A stretch of DNA of 64,000 nucleotides from positions 4,712,001-4,776,000 of the forward strand of contig CM102287.1 of NCBI GenBank assembly GCA_046563655.1. Direction: 5' to 3'. The stretch comes from Yuukianura sp. NJ FZ-2021. Lineage: Eukaryota. The notes below the pieces were generated by a model, which saw only the letters and a list, made by a program, of their open reading frames with translations, did not search any database and was not told the DNA's origin. Position numbers and translations under genes: made by a program. Positions 22,004 to 63,174 of the stretch are shown piece after piece; the stretch's first letter is position 1; each line of letters opens with the position of its first letter.

Positions 22004-24146
<2,143 letters not shown>

Positions 24147-52420: not shown

Positions 52421-53707
52421 TCTCTGGCAAGGTCACATGACTAGGAAAAGAGAAAGTTAAAGTTAAAAGTGAAAGGTTTAACGGTGCTTGGCGAGGGCGG
52501 GAAAATTTGAAAGTTTTTTAAGCGGGAAAAAAAGCTGGAGAAGAGGAACGAAGGTGAAGATGCGAAATAAATCCAGGAAGCCGCTGGAAGTCTGTTGTCG
52601 ACAGGTCATAATAATGATAATAGTTTTGGAAATGGAATACTACTGGCAGTATACCCGAGCAGTAGTGGATCTTCTACAAGAAAGTGAAAGTGGATGAAGG
52701 TGAGGAAGATGACAGATCCAGAGTCTACAAGGATCCCCATAACTCAACACTCAAATGGCCTTGGACCGAAGTCAGCTGAGACTCTTTATCTCCTTCCAAA
52801 CCGCATCTTCAAGCCCTCATTTCCATAAGGGGAGCAAGTAAGTGTCATCATCATCGGTTGTGTTGTTGCCATGGATACTTCAAAGTCATCTCCAGGGGGG
52901 CTGAAAAGGGGGGTGTCCATTAACACCCCCTGCCTGGTGATGTGATTTTGGCTCTTTTGATGTTTCCATTAGAGGTCATTCCCAGACTGGGAATTAAGTG
53001 ACATCAAACAGACGACGAAGTGTTGATCTTATTAAATATGGAGGACACAAGATATGAACCATTACGCAACAGTCGGAGTTTTCTCCCCTCCGTAAGTGAA
53101 AGTGGACACAAATCAGGGTACCCTTAACATAACAACCATTCATTTCAGAAATACCCATGGGACACAGGGCCAGATAAAAACTAACTTTTTTCCATCTGCT
53201 AACGGTCTTTCGTTAAAAAAAATCGTTCTTTTCGGTTTCCAAGTTCAATTCTAAAGCCACCGACTTAAAATTTGTTTTACGAAAGTTTTAACGTCACAAA
53301 CAGAAGATCCATCCATCGCCTCGATCTGTTGTTGGAATGGCCGAGTTTGATTGGATTTTGATAAGTTGATCCCGGATATCTTTCATTCTGAGAAAATTTA
53401 TTCAAAATTTTGAATTCTGAAATTGCCTTCTTGAACATTGAATCATCTTGTTTGCAACAAAATAGCGGAATTGGTCCTTTGCCAAAAGAGGAGAGATCGT
53501 TTATCGTTTGCTATATTTTTGCCAGGTGAAAGTGACAAGATGAGCAGAATGCTAAAATTAGACTTCAGCAGAAGCAGCAACAGAAGTTTGTGCTTCATTC
53601 ATGTTTGTTTTGTGCATAAGCTGATCTTCATTCCGAGAATTCTTGAAAAGACATTTCCGCATTTGTTTAGATTTCTAGTCGTAAATCACAAGTTTAAAAA
53701 ACGTTTA

Positions 53708-56700
53708 ATGTTGTTGTTTTGTATCTTTTTAGTTGCAGTGGTTCACCAACAACTGCCGCAATGTCATGCACAGAGTGTCAACCACCTTGAACTATCACGA
53801 CAAGGTCATCAACCTCCAGTTATAATTGGTAAACAGAACTTTGGATGTAAAATTTTGAACTTTGAATTTTTTAAATTAAACATTTTGAATGTTTGTTTTC
53901 AGGTGGACTGTTTGACGCGACAGATTCGCTGGAAGAAGCAACACTTAAGTTGGCCGTAGAACAAATCAATCGAGACCCTGCGCTACTGCCATACCATCAC
54001 TTGTCACTCAAGGCAGAGACTGTAGAAGGAAACAGTTCGTTTCACACGGCAAGAGCAGGTACTTAAGAATCAGAACGTTATTGTATTTCAAAATTTTTAA
54101 CTTTAAGTTTCTTTTTGAAAATTTTCTATGTTTTTTTTTTGTAGTGTGTAGTTTGCTACGTGAGGGAATCGTTGGCGTTTTTGGTCCGCAGAGTTCAGAT
54201 GGGGCAGCACATGCTCAGTCCCTCTGCGACAGATTTGACATTCCGCATATCGAAACACGGTGGGACTACCGCACTCGGCAGGACAAATATGCCATCAACG
54301 TCCATCCGCATGTCGATACATTGGGACAAGTAAGACAAACGTCCCAACACGGCCAGTCATCGACATCTTGACTTCAACTTTGACCTTGACCTTTGCTTTT
54401 AGGCATATGCCAATCTGGTAGACAACCTTGGAGAAAACTGGTTCAACTTTGCCGTACTTTACGACGAGGAAGAGGGACTCATCAAACTTCAAAATGTCGT
54501 CCGCAGTGCTCTACTTAACAAACGGAACATTACAGTTCGCCAGTTACCATCAGATGACTACAGGTTGACACAATATTCGTAAATTCAGAAAAATGATTTT
54601 GGCTTGGCTTGATATCGAAAATTTTCTTCCAGACCTCTACTGAAGTTGCTTCAACGAGAGTACCACATCCACAACATCATTGTAGATGCTTCTGTGGAAA
54701 AGACGCTGGAGGTGTTGATGCAAGCAGAGCAAATCGGAATGACAAGTCACGAGTACAGTTACATCCTGACAACTCTTGACCTCCAAGCAGACGAAATGGA
54801 CGAATACAAACACGGAGATGCTCAGTTCTTTGCCTTTCGGATTGTGGATCCCGAACGTGATGAAGTTCAGCGTATCAGTCAACAGTTGGCTGCGACGACG
54901 CAGACGCCACGCTGGAGAGGAGCTCAATTTCCACACCGATTTCCAACACCACACCGATCCAGTCTAACTGTAATACTCAATTTGGTTCATTGCTTTTCCA
55001 AAATTTTCAAAATTTTGATTGTTTTGACCTGTGTTTTTTTTTAGACCGCGCAAGCTCTGGTATTCGACGCTGTTCTGCTGTTCAGTAAAGCACTACATAA
55101 GAACACTGACATGCTCAGAACTGTACCGACTTTGAATTGCAATCAAGATGTGGGATGGACAGAGGGCTCGACGTTAATAAACGACATGAGAGCAATGGTA
55201 GGAATTTTTTCACATTTTACAACATTTTTTGCAAAATTCGATTTTCAAAATTCAAAACTGAATTAGCTTTTTTTCTGCATAGGCTGCATTCCAAGGGCTC
55301 ACTGGAACAATTCAGTTTAACAACTCTGGATATCGGACAGATATCACCTTGGATCTTGTCAAAGTCACCAAAAACGTAATTCTAACGACTAACTTTTACT
55401 TCACATGGTTGAACGAATAATTGAAAACGAAAATTTTGAACATTTCAACAACTTGTTTGATAGGGATTTGTGAAAGCTGGAAACTGGGAGTACGCTAGGT
55501 TTACCAACAGTAGAATCAATTGGTTGCCGCCGAGTGAAGCAGAGGAAAAAGAACTGAAACTGAACGAATCTGATCGGTTGCCGCTGAGCTCAAGAAATCT
55601 CAAAGTTACTACAATTATGGTAACTTTCCTATATTTTTTTTTGAAATTGGGATTCATAGTTCTGGATATCATTTTTCCATTTTCTCTTTTATAGACGGAT
55701 CCATTTTGTATGTACAAATTGTCAGTTGATCGTAAAGAAGGGAATGAGCGATTCGAAGGCTACACGATTGACCTTGTAAATGAACTTTCGCAAAGACTTG
55801 GATTCAACTACACAATTCAAATCGTTCGAGATGGAAGTTATAGCGGGATGATCCAGGAAGTGGTGGATGGCACTGGAGATCTCGTAGTGGCCGATTTGAC
55901 AATCACCGAAGAGAGACAGCAGAAGGTCGACTTTACTATGCCAGTAATTCAAAATTTCAAAATTCATCTTAAAACTTAAAACTTTTTCGAAATCAAGTTC
56001 TTAAATGATTTCGTTTTTTCAGTTTATGAATTTGGGCGTTTCGATTCTGTTTGTGCCGCCACAAGCGAAGCCACCGAGTCTCTTTTCCTTCATGTCGCCC
56101 TTTGCTCTCGACGTTTGGATCTACATGGCCATTGCCTTCTTTGGCGTCTCGTTAGTTCTGTTCATTGCAGCAAGGTATTCCACAAATTTTCAGAAAATTT
56201 TAGAAATTTTTGAAGTTTTTCATAATTTTGAAAATTTTTTGAACAGAGTCAGTCCACTTGAATGGGACAATCCACTTCCTTGCATTACTGATCCGGACAA
56301 ACTGCACAACCAATTCAAATTCTCCAACAGCATTTGGTTCACACTAGGGTCTATTATGCAGCAAGGTTCCGATTTAGCTCCAAAGTCCGTAGTTTTCAAA
56401 ATTTTGAAAATTTTCAAAAAATTTCTCAATGTTGCAATAACACTTGCCATTTTGTGTTTGAATTTTTACAGGGCCGTGTCTACTCGTATTATTGCTGGGA
56501 TTTGGTGGTTCTTTACGCTCATCATTGTCTCTTCCTACACAGCAAACTTGGCAACTTTCCTTATCGTAAAATATTTTAAATTTTCAAAAACTGGAAACAT
56601 TCTTTCAAATTTTCACATTTTTAGTACATTTTTTATTCTCTTATGATATTATGATTTGATAGGTTCAAGAACTGGACGAGTCCGTAAAGAGTCTGAGTGA

Positions 56701-58108
56701 TTTGGCAAACCAGACTAACGATAAGATTCAGTACGGATGTTTGATAGGAGGAAGCACATCCAAAGTCTTTTCGGTACGAAAACATAACTTAATGAATAAT
56801 ATGAGATGTTTTATTTACTATAATATAATATTTATTATTATATTATAATAATTGACCTGATTGATCAGAATTCGACTTCGGACGAGAAGAAGAGAATGTG
56901 GGAGAACATGAGCAATAAGTGGAAGGACGCTATGAAGCTCACAAATAATGAGGGCATTGACGCCGTCAGGGTATGAAATTTCCAAAATACAATTTTAATT
57001 CGAGTTTCAAAAAAAAATTGAAAAAAGAAAGTTTTAAAAAATCGTTAAACTACTTTTTGAAATGCTCACAGAGTATAAGCTTAGCTTTACGAATGTGAAT
57101 TATTTTTGAGTTTAGGAAAGCAAAGGGAAATATGCGTTCTTCATGGAGAGCACGAGTAAGTTTGAATTACCTCGAATTGACTGCTATTTAAAATAGTAAG
57201 TAACCGATTAATTAATTTAATCGATTATTTTCATTTCATTAGTAATCGAGTACAACATGGAGAGAAAGTGTAACTTGGCCCAAGTGGGGGGACTAATCGA
57301 CAACAAGGGATATGGCATAGCACTCAAGAAAGGTTTTCACTTTGACTTTTGAATTTTAATGTTTGAATTATATTTTTTATTTTATATAATATTTTATATC
57401 ACAGAATCTCCGTACATGGATCTATTCAATGGAGCTGTGCTCAAGTTACAGGAAAATGGAAAATTGGATGAACTCAAAAGGAAGTGGTGGAAGGAGCAGA
57501 GGAAAGAACAAGCAGAGACTTGCCCAGTAACATTTCAATTCTTACAAAATTTTTACAAAATTTTTTAAAATTTTGAACTCTTGTTTTTGATTTTTGTGAA
57601 TTCATTCTCATAGACCGCCAGTGTGAGTGATGCAGTCAAACCTCTTCAGCTTGCCAACGTTGGAGGTTAGATTCTAAAAAAATTAAACATTTTTAGTGAA
57701 AGCTCGACGTTTTAAAAGTATTTTTTGAAAAGGTGTTTTCGTGGTGCTGGTCGTTGGTTGCATTGCCTCTGTGTTCATCACTTGTTTTGAAGTTTGGCTG
57801 CACTCGAAATTTGATCGTCGTGACCTCCATGACCTCCAAGGGGTACGCCCTTGAATTCCATTTTTCGAATTTCCAATGTCACCAAGTTTTTTTTCAAGTT
57901 CAGTGTAACATTTTTTTTTCCAAAATTTCAGGATTCTCGAATTCGTGAAATCTTGAAGGACCTTCAATTTGCGCTGCAGTGTCGCGGAAATGTGAAACCA
58001 GTTCGGAAAAAGTCCGATTCCACCAGGCCAAGTATTGGAAACAGCAAAGAAGAACTTGGCAGTACACCGTACATGAAGTACGCAAGCAACAAATCACTAG
58101 CTGACTAA
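53708..58108 (+). CDS. Ionotropic glutamate receptor subunit, kainate-type (GluK-like), ~932 aa
   Basis: 20 GT-AG exons in continuous frame: 53708-53828, 53903-54058, 54145-54329, 54403-54563, 54633-54969, 55045-55197, 55283-55375, 55464-55619, 55695-55943, 56023-56174, 56247-56384, 56472-56565, 56663-56773, 56869-56970, 57116-57155, 57243-57332, 57405-57526, 57614-57665, 57733-57842, 57932-58108. Signal peptide; ATD (IGGLF, GVFGPQS, DIPHIETRWD); S1 (ADLTITEER, VDFTMPFMNLGVSIL); M1; SPLEWDNPLPC; M2 (WFTLGSIMQQGSD); M3 (WWFFTLIIVSSYTANLATFL); S2 (GST, YAFFMEST, GYGIA, LKRKWW); M4 (NVGGVFVVL). Confidence 0.95.
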
Positions 58109-58466
58109 AGTTTAGGAACTTAATACTTATAAACTTTTAGTTGAATTAAATATTTAAAAGGTAACCTAGAAAAGTAATTTAAGTACGAACTGGATACTGA
58201 GAGTAATTAAATATGTAATTTATCAAACCCACGTCAAATAAACAATAAATTAGTCAAGTCTAATGACAATAATTATAATAATCTAATAAAGTATATATAA
58301 ATACGTAGGATAAATTTAAATCTCGTACACAATTAACTTTGCTCCCCATTTTGGAACCTAGTTTCGAAGTGTTGCTCTTCAATTTGAACTTACTCTTCAA
58401 TCTTTCTAATCTTGGTTTCCGGATTATCAACGGCAGTCCTCATTTTTTTTCCAGGAGTTTACAAGT

Positions 58467-59866
58467 TCATGCCGAAGGCTCTGCTTTGATTGGAGATTTT
58501 CTGGAGTCTCTGCAAAACATCTGAAATTGAGAATTTAATTAGTTAGAAAAAAATATAGCAAATAGTAATTAGTAAATTATAAGTCCAGGAATTGTGAACT
58601 TGCTTGATGTGTCGGCCAGTCTTTTCTTTGACAAAAGGCAGAACAGTATCGAACCCCCTGGCATCCGGAACACTCCAAGCTTCCATCTCTGCCACAATTC
58701 TCACACTGGACACAAAAAAGTTAATAAGAAGGAGAGTTCAACGTAAAAACAGCGATTAATTGCTAACCTTAGAGACGCATATTGTTTGTGGAGTGCCGGA
58801 AGGCTTATAGTTGTCGGGCGTCACGAGCTCAATTGTGTAAGTTTGAATTCTGTTGGAATCAAAGACACGAACGACTTGCGACTCTGAGGCTGCCACAACT
58901 TGATTTTGGATTAGCGTCGATCCAATAATGGAATTTTGAAGTTGAACTTTGAGTTGTTCTGCTTCTTGATTTGTACGTTCCTTAATTTCCTTCAAATAGG
59001 CCTTCAAATTCACAGCGGCAGAGAAGATTCCATCGACGGCCTGGAAATACAAAATACTGGAATTTAGCACCAATTTCCCTTGGAAAGAAAATCTATTTGG
59101 CTTGCTATCGAATGATTTATGTGGATACCTCTTCGACGGTTTGCCAAGCTTCTTTGGTTGCGGGCGGAAGTGTGACTTGAGAAACTTTTAGTAGTGAGTC
59201 GGCCAGTGAGCCAAAACTTGAATCCAAGGCAGTCGTGGACATGGACGGATTTGAAGAGGCATCAGAAGAGCCGTCCTCCATCTTCATTACTTTGTTATTG
59301 GTCTGCTTGTGTCTATCGTCACGTTCACCGGCTACATATTTGCGTTTCCGTTGATAAGGCGTAAAGTGTCGGACGGGAGCAGACTGGAATCAACACATCA
59401 GGATGTGAAGTTACTAAAAGGAAAGTTTTTGCAAATGAGGACTTACGGCTGACGCATCGTCAACACAAATTGAACAAATGCAACTCATAGCATGAGGAAC
59501 GAGGAATCCTTTTTGAATCAGCGTTTGAAGCGTTCGTCCTCCGAATCGAATCGATCGCTTCCAGTCCTTGCTACTGCCTCGACCGCAATGAGCTTCAAAT
59601 TCCGTTGGGGTAAACCAGTCTGACCCAAGTTTAATACACTTCCCCTTATTTCCAGATCCGAATTTGTCTTTGTAGAATTCAGCGTTCGTAATCTTGCAGC
59701 GTACAGGTAGCATGGTTGCTGATGCAGCGTCTTCCAAGCTCATCCTTTGTCCTGGTCGAGTGTCCTCCTCATACTCCAAAATGTCAACACCAGTTTCTTG
59801 CGTAGTTGGCGACGTTCCAGCTGATTGTGGTTTTTGACGGTGACCTTTGCCCTGTGGTGGTGACAT
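58467..59866 (-). CDS. Deaf1: Deformed epidermal autoregulatory factor 1 (SAND domain, coiled coil, MYND finger), ~367 aa
   Basis: Coding exons 59866-59447, 59383-59129, 59040-58768, 58705-58604, 58520-58467. SAND domain with the KDWK motif ([27 protein letters not shown]), DEAF1-type [11 protein letters not shown] and [28 protein letters not shown]...[19 protein letters not shown] probable 5'-UTR exon lies at ~60062-60003. The last intron is GC-AG. Confidence 0.93.
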
Positions 59867-60297
59867 TACGCCGCTTCCGGTACCATTCTAAAAACAAAAC
59901 AGAAGTCGTAAATCAAAAACAAATATTCGACAATTCCTGTCAAAGTCAATGTAAATTACAGTGTTTGAATTTAAAACAATGAATTGTTTTTCAGAAACTC
60001 ACCGTTTTCACTGTCGCTACTATACCGGAAACGCTGGGTGGTTGACACGTTCAGAGGCAGTCCTGCTAGGAGAAATTAATTAAATTCAGCAATTACCCGC
60101 AACCCACGTCGGCAGCACAGCAGCTGATTCACGAAATCCACAACATGAAAATGAAATTGTTTCTTTTTCTTTTTTTATTCCTTTTTTTTTTATACAGAAT
60201 CTCATTCTGCCCCCAATGTCTCATCCAATTTGAATTTTCACGCGGGAAAACAATGTATTGCTTGTTTTTGTGGTGGAAGTAACGATTAACGAACGTC

Positions 60298-60944: not shown

Positions 60945-63174
60945 CTAGTCATCCAGAAGGGCCAAGTCCTCAAGTCTCTGCTGCAGCGAGGGACCCATTG
61001 CATCAAATACGTACGAAAAGTACCCCTTGACGTCAACTTTCTCGGTGGCAGATCGCTTCAGGAAGGGGTGCTGAAGCAGGCGGGCGTACTTGGGGCGTTC
61101 TATCTCACGCTTGATTAGGCTGTTTTAGGTAACAGCAAACAAAAACATATTAGGAACTATTGGACATTTAAAGAAAGATTTGTTGATCTTGGCTGGAGTC
61201 TTACCAGGTATTGACGAAATTAACAAATTCAGGCGAGAATGTGAATCCATGGGTTCTGGTAGTAAGACGCGGGGGATCTCCTGCAAGTTTTTAGAAAATT
61301 ATGATTCTGATTCGATTTTGTTTAAAACAGGATTCGATGTGTTGACGTACCTTGAACTACTTGGCTCAATTGCTCAAATATGGAGTTCCACTTGGGGTAT
61401 GGGAAGACGCCTGTTGACACTTCGAACAGAGTAATTCCCAGCGACCAGACGTCAGATCTGATGTCATACCCTGTAGCAGAAGACGGGTCAATTCGCTCGG
61501 GCTGGAAAAAATCAACAGTAAAGGTCAGTTGAGAAATTCGTCAACTTTATCCTAGGATTAGTCACTTTTCACTTAAGTGCTTATGCTTATGCTTACGGCC
61601 ATGTATGGTCTGCATCCGGCATCACGACTCTGCGCAATAGAATCCACCAGTTGCCCAGAAATCCCGAAATCGCAGAGCTTAATATGGCCTTCCCGGTTTA
61701 GCAAAATATTCGAGGGCTTAACATCCCTAGAGCACAGAAACGAGAAATCAATTAATAGCCAGTTACCAATTACTGGCAGAAAAGTAATTGTGCCGCCAAA
61801 ACCTTACCGGTGAATAATCCTCAGTTCTTCTTTCAAGTAGCTCAAAGCCCGGACCGTCTGTCGGAAAAATCAAAGTTTAGCTACCGATTTGACTAAAACG
61901 TTTTAAAACGTTTTCAGCAAGACTACTTACCACGAGCGCGATTTTCCCAATTATGTTCTCTGGTATGCGGTCGCCCATCTTCCGGTAGACGTACTTGTAG
62001 AACTGCTCCAATGAAGAGTCCATCAATTCCATACAGATCCAGCAGTCTCCCTCCTTGAATACTGCACCATAGAACTATCCAAAACGATATTAGAATCTTA
62101 TTAAGCATAACGATTTAAAGCATCAACCACATTGAGAATCCCGGTTTCTGTCGTTTTCTTACCCCAACAATAACTGGACACGAATTGGACCTAAAATATT
62201 ATTGCAACATTCAGTTTATAAACCAAAGATCAGCATTGCGAAACTAAAAGTCATCAAATGTTGTAAAATTACTTCATGACGACTTCCAAATCCATCATAA
62301 GCTTCTTCTGTTCACGCTCGTCCACGGTACACCGAATTCGCTGAAAATGAAATGAAGTTGATTCAGCAAAGGTCAAAGGTCATGATTAAGAAACGCTTGT
62401 TAGACTGTCCCTGACCTTGACAGCAATGGCTGTGGACGATCGTTTGTGGAACATTTTGTTCACCGTGCCATAAGCGCCTCTCCCGATCTCTCCCAAGTCT
62501 GAAAATTTAAAGCAATTTGACAAGTTTAGTTCTTTTGAAAGTTATTCAAAGTTTTTTCCAAAATGATTCAAAAAGTTTTATGATTTGCTCCATTAGGTTC
62601 ATTAGATTTGTCCTTTCATGTTTCACTAACCCTCCAAATCATCCGCCGTAAAATCAAAAGTCAATTCTGGTGAAATTTTCAATTTTCCGGAACTATGCAG
62701 TCCAGAATTTGCTCGAAACTGGTCACTAACAATGAAAAATGAAGACGTTTTATGCCCGGAATCTATTCATCGGTTTGATTTAGCAAATTAGTTGATCAAC
62801 TAACGATTGATCGTACGTACATTTGTGTCACGCTGTTTGAACTGCCTGGCCCCAATCGTTCTTGGGCTATCGGTATAGGCTGAAGAGGAGGAACGAATTG
62901 TCTCGGACTCGTATCTGAACTGGCTTCTCCCACTGGACCAAAGTAGCTCGAGTCAAAGTTCAGTCTTAGTCCATTACGCAGATCTAAAATTAATCACATG
63001 ATCAATTAGTTAACTTCAAGCTCAATTAGCACCCAACCTTCATTCTATGGATATTGAATGTTCGCTTCCGTAACGTTTCATAATCGTTCAACATAACGTT
63101 AAAAATTCCAATTTGATCTTACTTGCGCCCAGTGCAGGATTGCTAGGATTAAAAGACGTTGGCCGTTCTGCCAT
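60945..63174 (-). CDS. Mkk4: Dual-specificity MAP kinase kinase 4 (JNK/p38 activator), ~404 aa
   Basis: 12 exons in frame: 63174-63123, 62983-62821, 62725-62631, 62498-62416, 62340-62273, 62190-62163, 62074-61931, 61857-61808, 61726-61597, 61501-61351, 61280-61205, 61119-60945. D-site-like [12 protein letters not shown]4-typical [89 protein letters not shown]. Confidence 0.95.

Follow-up and report, generated by a model that had tools for sequence, protein, structure and literature searches.

A springtail clade of kainate-type glutamate receptors with Thr or Ser at the lurcher position and altered outer gate and gating linkers

The replacement of Ala by Thr at the eighth position of the gate motif SYTANLAAF is a textbook gain-of-function and disease change in ionotropic glutamate receptors (iGluRs). 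Here we describe a gene, predicted to encode a kainate-type iGluR subunit, that has Thr at this position in a stretch of 64,000 nucleotides from Yuukianura sp. NJ FZ-2021 (GCA_046563655.1, contig CM102287.1, positions 4,712,001 to 4,776,000, forward strand; this whole stretch is hereafter the window). The motif has been described as the longest segment that iGluR subtypes share in identical form, and its Ala-8 is the Lurcher site in the numbering of Wilding and Huettner (PMC6445585). When Ala-8 is changed to Thr (A8T), receptors of the delta, AMPA, kainate and NMDA types become constitutively active or respond with high affinity and deactivate slowly; apparent agonist affinity rises, desensitization is reduced, deactivation is slowed or a standing current appears, and such alleles are harmful in mouse and human (PMC6445585). 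In mice carrying GluK2 A657T, the decay of excitatory postsynaptic currents is slowed and a standing current is uncovered (preprint). The lurcher-type mutants, e.g., the GluD2 Lurcher mouse, GRIK2 A657T and the A8T forms of AMPA and NMDA receptors, have the same Thr as our gene (PMC6445585), and a preliminary description of the window, which took this residue for a known gain-of-function change, agrees with these sources. In placozoan iGluRs, Ala at position 8 is completely conserved (PMC12226733).

The gate of the window gene, numbered with the Ser of the motif as position 1, comprises the following elements:
56533..56559, forward strand: gate motif SYTANLATF, positions 1-9, from sequence reading and PDB alignment
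56554..56556, forward strand: codon ACT, Thr662, gate position 8 (the lurcher position); the DNA contigs X1 record 6 and X4 record 22 have the same letters here
56472..56565, forward strand: exon 12, coding for the M3 inner helix, which starts with GGC after ...tttacag and ends with ATC before gtaaaa

The nine codons of the motif are TCC TAC ACA GCA AAC TTG GCA ACT TTC. For database searches covering M1-M3, we used the unaltered translation of the open frame 56020-56565, in which two short introns are read through in frame. A phmmer search with this query found 192 distinct PDB sequences at E<=0.001. The best was GluK2 (5kuf_A, E 5.1e-32), and the three exon parts of the query align to the M1, pore loop and M3 of GluK2. 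Column by column, M3 reads ...ssytanlatfl against ...ssytanlaafl in GluK2, which places the Thr on Ala-8; the window protein matches SYTANLAAF at 8 of 9 positions and departs at position 8.

This Thr is the true base and not an assembly slip. We aligned contigs of public sequencing runs to positions 53600-58200 of the window, using four DNA runs of one sample (including X1 and X2), a DNA run with another organism label, sample and study (X4, word share 0.81) and an environmental metatranscriptome (X6, the sole RNA run, word share 0.09). X1 record 6 (56195-57579) and X4 record 22 (56416-56601) both extend over the Thr codon, and neither has a letter that differs. X1 is possibly the source of the window itself and X4 is independent of it; since both are unchanged over 56554, an error or a private allele is very unlikely. 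X2 record 9 extends over the entire gene and differs from it by 37 letters and 44 gap letters, which marks it as a divergent haplotype or strain, and among the 40 of 81 differences listed, X2 has none between 56288 and 57119. The preliminary description had named a sequencing error or rare allele as what would overturn its reading of SYTANLATF with ACT at 56554-56556. Against an error or rare allele, the letters over the site are the same in two sets of DNA contigs, which come from different samples and studies, and Thr or Ser also fills this column in six related proteins of three other species. We therefore regard this explanation as extremely improbable, and the reading of the motif stands.

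The relatives of the window protein indicate that the Thr is no isolated oddity, as the preliminary description had supposed. The M1-M3 query found 1401 homologues at E<=0.001 among 1995 candidates. Among the best 120 longer ones, which we examined, 116 have only Ala at position 8, and the four exceptions are the closest relatives: three proteins of Allacma fusca with Thr and one of Orchesella dallaii with Ser. A profile of these four brought in one more member, from Folsomia candida, with Ser. A search of short proteins added a fourth, partial Allacma protein with Thr; the other gate-motif matches among the 113 newly retrieved short proteins all have Ala. The springtail relatives are thus A. 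fusca P0020, P0036, P0050 and P0391 (Thr), O. dallaii P0061 (Ser) and F. candida P0121 (Ser), and position 8 is T or S in 7/7 clade members, the window protein included. A profile search that does not depend on a word index, run over 1.84 billion representatives, gave 21399 matches at E<=0.001 and no closer relative in the best 150. The relatives from Allacma, Orchesella and Folsomia are annotated as 'glutamate receptor ionotropic, kainate 2' or 'kainate 2-like', and they share both the clade and the signature of the window protein.

For comparison, we aligned 381 arthropod-type proteins and the window model on one profile. The lurcher column is filled in 377 of these, with Ala in 359, Ser in 7, Thr in 6, and Val, Gly, Leu, Pro and Glu in 1 each. 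Because 18/377 aligned members depart from Ala at position 8, such a departure is no ground for excluding the gene from the iGluR family.

The clade is recovered when the gate is withheld from the data. We reduced the 382 rows to 215 (>=85% profile coverage, <1150 aa), then to 117 (80% identity) and to 87 (62% identity), a thinning that left out P0353, P0370, P0300, P0252 and P0338. From these we picked 47 rows by hand: 29 from the window's half of the 87-row tree, 12 named insects and crustaceans, and 6 outgroup sequences. A maximum-likelihood tree of these 47 rows over 842 columns, built without columns 687-709 of the gate and linker (IQ-TREE quick search, LG+C20 with posterior mean site frequencies, PMSF), unites the window model with the five full-length springtail proteins (Shimodaira-Hasegawa-like approximate likelihood ratio test, SH-aLRT, 100; stem 0.33). 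The five other springtail proteins form the sister group of the window protein (SH-aLRT 95). The 87-row tree, from which the linker tail columns were removed and in which the gate columns were left, has the same clade with support of 100. Thr-8 is thus old and shared, and no one-off, in a clade of receptors for which springtails are the only source to date. The preliminary description had stated that its idea would fail if Thr proved common in this receptor subclade with normal gating; the first half of that proviso, commonness, is what we find, the second half being a matter of channel behavior.

The nearest named proteins elsewhere are the insect KaiR1D-type receptors (so named in Carabus and Rhynchophorus), to which the ligand-binding core of Drosophila CG3822 also belongs. 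We take CG3822 to be KaiR1D itself; of the sources consulted for this equivalence, the KaiR1D preprint does not have the name CG3822, and the one paper with both names lists CG3822 without equating the two in the passage concerned. Like the springtail proteins, the KaiR1D-type receptors combine an amino-terminal domain (ATD), a ligand-binding domain (LBD) and a transmembrane domain (TMD), and they share the ADLTIT..R segment and the Gln at the Q/R site. Unlike the springtail clade, they read ISSYTANLAAFLTVERM over the gate and the linker that follows, which is the canonical form, and their S1-M1 linker is YRKP. They evolve slowly and form a separate, tight group in the 47-row tree, where the branching order among groups is either left open or supported at 82-89. 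Because of this, we do not call the springtail clade a KaiR1D orthologue. Over its full length, the window protein is about 48% identical to its own clade and 46-47% identical to the insect KaiR1D-type proteins.

The changes in the springtail clade are not confined to position 8. The additional altered elements of the window gene are:
56563..56565, forward strand: codon ATC, Ile665, gate position 11, where the usual residue is Thr (350/377); corresponds to the pore-lining T625 of GluA2
56663..56680, forward strand: first codons of exon 13, coding for V Q E L D E (M3-S2 linker, positions 12-17), in which E13, R/K14 and M15 have become Q, E and L
56053..56058, forward strand: S1-M1 linker, Val548-Pro549; K or R stands at the first of the two in 320/373 aligned proteins

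Set against the alignment, the usual residues and those of the clade are:
position 8: usually A (359/377); clade T/S
position 11: usually T (350/377); clade I/L
position 13: usually E (302); clade Q
position 14: usually R or K (293); clade D/E/L
position 15: usually M (249); clade L/K
S1-M1 linker: usually K or R (320/373); clade V/T

Gate positions 1-7, 9, 10 and 12 are canonical in the clade, whose gate and linker signature is SYTANLA(T/S)FL(I/L)VQ. The window protein fits it with T-8, I-11, Q-13, E-14 and L-15, and with V in the S1-M1 linker. In the closed gate of GluA2, the residues T617, A621, T625 and M629, i.e., positions 3, 7, 11 and 15, form a hydrophobic seal (PMC9068512). As these residues line the gate, two of the four gate-lining positions are altered in the clade along with position 8. 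Among the 351 proteins with a canonical motif, Thr-11 is missing in 11/13 of those without Ala-8, as compared to 9/338 of those with it.

We consider it probable that the window gene encodes a working kainate-type subunit whose gate and gating linkers have been remodelled together within its clade, and that the channel would be re-tuned and not leaky. We propose that this joint remodelling, of the outer gate and of both linkers pulling on it, took place in the ancestor of the clade. Ala-8 would have become Thr (Ser in two species), Thr-11 would have become Ile or Leu, and Met-15 would have become Leu or Lys, while Glu-Arg in the M3-S2 linker would have become Gln followed by Asp, Glu or Leu, and the basic residue of the S1-M1 linker would have become Val or Thr. 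By analogy with GluD2, GluK2 and AMPA receptors, Thr-8 alone would be expected to shift the balance between closed and open states toward open. Together with the altered linkers, the larger hydrophobic side chain at position 11 may shift this balance back or re-set it. The channel would then still be gated by glutamate, with a changed sensitivity and changed kinetics, and would not leak constitutively. Affinity for glutamate is very low in Drosophila KaiR1D, the closest relative to have been characterised (half-maximal effective concentration, EC50, 10.7 mM; bioRxiv 10.1101/2025.10.06.680643), and because of this a gate change that raises sensitivity could be an ordinary tuning step.

The idea that the preliminary description favored is that the subunit is of an uncompensated lurcher type, either tonically open or very sensitive and slow, which would make it a standing or integrating sensor of glutamate. 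The Thr at position 8 and the effects described above for A8T in four receptor families, as well as the standing current with GluK2 A657T, speak for this idea. Moreover, the trait is retained across the clade, which suggests that it has been selected for something, and both residues found there, T and S, have a hydroxyl group. However, the clade has also altered a pore-lining residue to a bulkier hydrophobic one and has changed both linkers, as would be expected if the raw effect needed offsetting, and A8T alleles are harmful in mouse and human. Lurcher-type mutants are single harmful changes in a canonical gate, whereas in the springtail clade T or S is the wild type, and positions 11, 13, 14 and 15 as well as the S1-M1 linker have changed with it. 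We therefore find an uncompensated lurcher-type subunit rather unlikely.

The subunit's type and integrity were established from a model of the whole gene, whose coding parts and landmarks are:
53708..58108, forward strand: whole coding region of the kainate-type iGluR gene, from homologue tblastn and GT..AG junctions, without internal stop
53708-53828, 53903-54058, 54145-54329, 54403-54563, 54633-54969, forward strand: exons 1-5
55045-55197, 55283-55375, 55464-55619, 55695-55943, 56023-56174, forward strand: exons 6-10
56247-56384, 56472-56565, 56663-56773, 56869-56970, 57116-57155, forward strand: exons 11-15
57243-57332, 57405-57526, 57614-57665, 57733-57842, 57932-58108, forward strand: exons 16-20
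55914..55916, forward strand: Arg528, ligand contact in S1, in ADLTITEER, aligned with the Arg of the CG3822 ligand-binding core
56756..56758, forward strand: Thr697, ligand contact in S2, GST motif, from the alignment with relatives
57146..57148, forward strand: Glu747, ligand contact in S2, in FFMEST, from the alignment with relatives
56359..56364, forward strand: both Gln codons of MQQG in the pore loop; Gln occupies the Q/R site (numbering 586-QQGCD-590 from PMC9068512)
55839..55844, forward strand: point in exon 9 at which LBD loop 1 is 10 residues shorter (gap between Tyr503 and Ser504) than in CG3822 and the clade relatives

Searches with tblastn, using the closest homologues, found 20 coding blocks on the forward strand, and the model has 20 coding exons with a coding sequence of 2799 nt, 932 aa and introns of 67-145 nt, which agrees with the intact 20-exon gene that had been proposed. 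Junctions were picked among GT..AG candidates by their score against a profile of four springtail proteins, and the canonical splice sites are a matter of construction, as only GT..AG introns were searched. Pfam searches, run on unspliced pieces, identified ANF_receptor on exon 5 alone (3e-7, 30.2 bits, cutoff 25.4), Lig_chan-Glu_bd on exon 9 (5.1e-23) and Lig_chan on the M1-M3 frame (3.8e-25). The full ATD is alignable with the relatives, the LBD has its two lobes, and M1, pore loop, M3 and M4 follow in order, with hydrophobic stretches at aa 568-587, 640-658 and 836-856 and the MQQG pore loop. The ligand-contact Arg in S1 and the GST and Glu in S2, which the preliminary description had also reported, are retained as Arg528, Thr697 and Glu747.

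Among solved structures, the S1 exon best matches the ligand-binding core of Drosophila CG3822 (5dtb/5ehm, E 1.7e-23), followed by GluK3, GluK2 and GluK1, and the ADLTIT..R segment and its Arg are conserved between this exon and CG3822. Of the 18 PDB sequences that match M1-M3 best, all but two are kainate receptors, these two being titled only 'Glutamate receptor', and the named matches in the homologue searches are all kainate-type. By these comparisons, the predicted product is an AMPA/kainate-type iGluR subunit of the kainate-type branch. Exon 13 (37 aa) had only weak, spurious matches in the PDB, to designed armadillo repeats, and the S2 residues were placed from the alignment of relatives instead. 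The ten residues missing from loop 1, among them the conserved Trp before GM(I/V), occur in CG3822 and in each of the five full-length springtail relatives. Because exon 9 is one continuous frame, they have truly been deleted and do not lie in an exon that the model overlooked.

From the segment before M1 to M3, the window protein is as conserved as its relatives are, with an identity to the clade of 0.73, compared to 0.72 within the clade. Beyond codon 130, the listed variants among the DNA runs are 12 synonymous and 5 non-synonymous, and of the 12 indels listed (of 20), 10 are intronic and the 2 exonic ones, of 30 nt and 9 nt, are multiples of three. As far as the listed variants go, the variation fits a gene that is kept in frame and whose channel core is constrained. 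The haplotype or strain represented by X2 has a 30-nt in-frame deletion in exon 1, in the region 53775-54031 (exons 1-2). Codons 39-84, at the start of the ATD, are a hot spot that contains 8 of the 13 listed non-synonymous differences, from X2 plus X1 contigs, in contrast with the mostly synonymous changes further on.

It is important to consider the points that weigh against the re-tuned, working channel that we favor. The end branch of the window protein is 1.05, as compared to 0.11-0.52 for its relatives; its ATD has an identity to the clade of 0.39, against 0.57 within the clade, and its S1 one of 0.46, against 0.57. The divergence of the ATD and S1 accounts for the long branch. This branch, the ATD divergence and the loop-1 deletion, which is private to the window protein, may mean that its response to ligand is different or weakened. 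The 40 listed variants (of 81 among the DNA runs) comprise 14 non-coding, 13 synonymous and 13 non-synonymous ones, i.e., equal numbers of the two coding kinds, with 8 of the non-synonymous clustered in exons 1-2. The association of positions 8 and 11 is drawn from rows that are not phylogenetically independent, in that the six springtail rows represent one event, and two of the 13 proteins without Ala-8 (P0252 and P0300) retain Thr-11. The trees are quick searches with SH-aLRT as their only support. That Ile or Leu at position 11 compensates for Thr-8 is something that we infer. The sole position-11 mutant for which we found literature, GluA2 T625N, is a gain of function in which desensitization is nearly abolished and deactivation is slowed 17-fold (PMC13635229). 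We found no literature on the change from T to I at position 11. Lastly, we saw no sign of expression in the one RNA run, the environmental metatranscriptome X6, whose sole contig over the gene, record 25 (56495-56707), is unspliced: it is collinear with the genome through all of intron 12, with a single A>G, and it may be pre-mRNA or DNA carried over.

Several of these points, namely the long end branch, the divergence of the ATD and S1, the loop deletion, the 13 non-synonymous among 26 listed coding variants and the lack of spliced RNA (one environmental RNA contig over the site), would also be expected if channel function were relaxed or lost, such that the window copy is drifting and its gate residue is of no more consequence. 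However, 932 codons in 20 exons contain no stop or frameshift, the listed coding indels preserve the frame, the pore region is no less conserved than within the clade, the ligand-contact Arg, Thr and Glu are retained, and synonymous changes outnumber the others beyond codon 130. Relaxed or lost function is thus improbable in our estimation.

A further possibility, also raised in the preliminary description, is that A-to-I editing acts as a gating switch: ADAR would turn ACT into ICT, which is read as GCT (Ala), in some transcripts, giving a lurcher-like and a canonical gate from one gene. A single A-to-G change at 56554 does give Ala, and ADAR recoding sites in iGluR pores (e.g., the Q/R site) likewise recode a gating residue by a single A-to-G. 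The one A>G of X6 record 25 lies within a segment with 59 A's, so that a chance hit on 56554 would occur about 1 time in 59; this RNA contig is from another sample, and its A>G may be mere polymorphism. Unlike at the known recoding sites, we found no exon-intron duplex in the window gene. The fold of exon 12 with its flanking introns (56385-56720) has a minimum free energy of -55.2 kcal/mol, as compared to -58.85 +/- 4.46 for shuffles (z +0.82), which argues against a stable local structure. Among inverted pairs in 55600-57600, the gate codons 56533-56559 are in none of the 25 longest of 142; these 25 all join AT-rich, low-complexity intron segments to each other, and the nearest arm starts at 56568. 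In this fold and these 25 pairs, we thus found no double-stranded RNA that includes 56554. In the standard genetic code, Ser codons cannot become Ala by A-to-I changes, and the Ser of Orchesella and Folsomia means that a restored Ala is not what the clade conserves. With neither a duplex nor a conserved editable codon in its favor, we consider an editing switch very unlikely.

The intron segments just mentioned contain an AT-only, partly palindromic low-complexity motif (TTTTCAAAATTTTGAAAA-like), which recurs in many introns of the receptor gene. Its copies pair inversely between neighbouring introns, e.g., 31 nt at 87% between introns 10 and 11. Because the copies draw a several-fold excess of contig depth, the motif is dispersed in the genome. 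Copies in the receptor gene are at approximately:
55944-55977, 56184-56243, 56389-56430, 56568-56634, 56997-57053 and 57533-57577: AT-only intron motif

Other genes in the window are a POU-homeobox gene at 23209-24143 (forward strand; Pou domain 2.4e-21, homeodomain 1.3e-7) and, just downstream of the receptor gene on the other strand, a SAND-domain exon at 59417-59887 (2.4e-28) and a protein-kinase exon at 61576-61803 (9.7e-11).

Outside springtails, other kainate-type paralogues of arthropods have departed from Ala-8 independently:
P0353, Pieris rapae (cluster of 5, four Pieris species): Thr
P0338, Tuta absoluta: Ser
P0300, Rhipicephalus microplus: Ser
P0327, Ornithodoros turicata: Ser
P0252, Petrolisthes cinctipes: Ser
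P0238, Neodiprion spp.: Val

Like the springtail proteins, these are predicted wild-type proteins, most of which also lack Thr-11. Unlike them, they belong to unrelated lineages with more divergent motifs and linkers (e.g., F9 is L in Lepidoptera), and none has the IVQ(D/E)L linker. We found no paper containing the string SYTANLATF, nor one that joins Collembola, ionotropic glutamate receptors and kainate, in a search that subscription journals mostly fall outside of.

With 18/377 proteins departing from Ala, position 8 is less invariant in the kainate-type expansions of arthropods than the vertebrate-centred literature implies. A stronger claim, to which we give tentative consideration, is that the springtail clade fixed the lurcher substitution as its wild type and kept it while the major springtail lineages split, by co-evolving the outer gate (Thr-11 to Ile or Leu, Met-15 to Leu) and both linkers between the LBD and the TMD. 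If this is true, the receptors of the clade would be natural, viable glutamate sensors of high sensitivity or slow deactivation, and their co-substitutions would be ready-made second-site suppressors of lurcher-type gating. The clade may be seen as a natural experiment on the residues that enable a glutamate receptor to withstand, or make use of, a gate of the lurcher type. Its value lies in a natural set of co-substitutions that can be tested by residue swaps with KaiR1D or GluK2, singly and combined.

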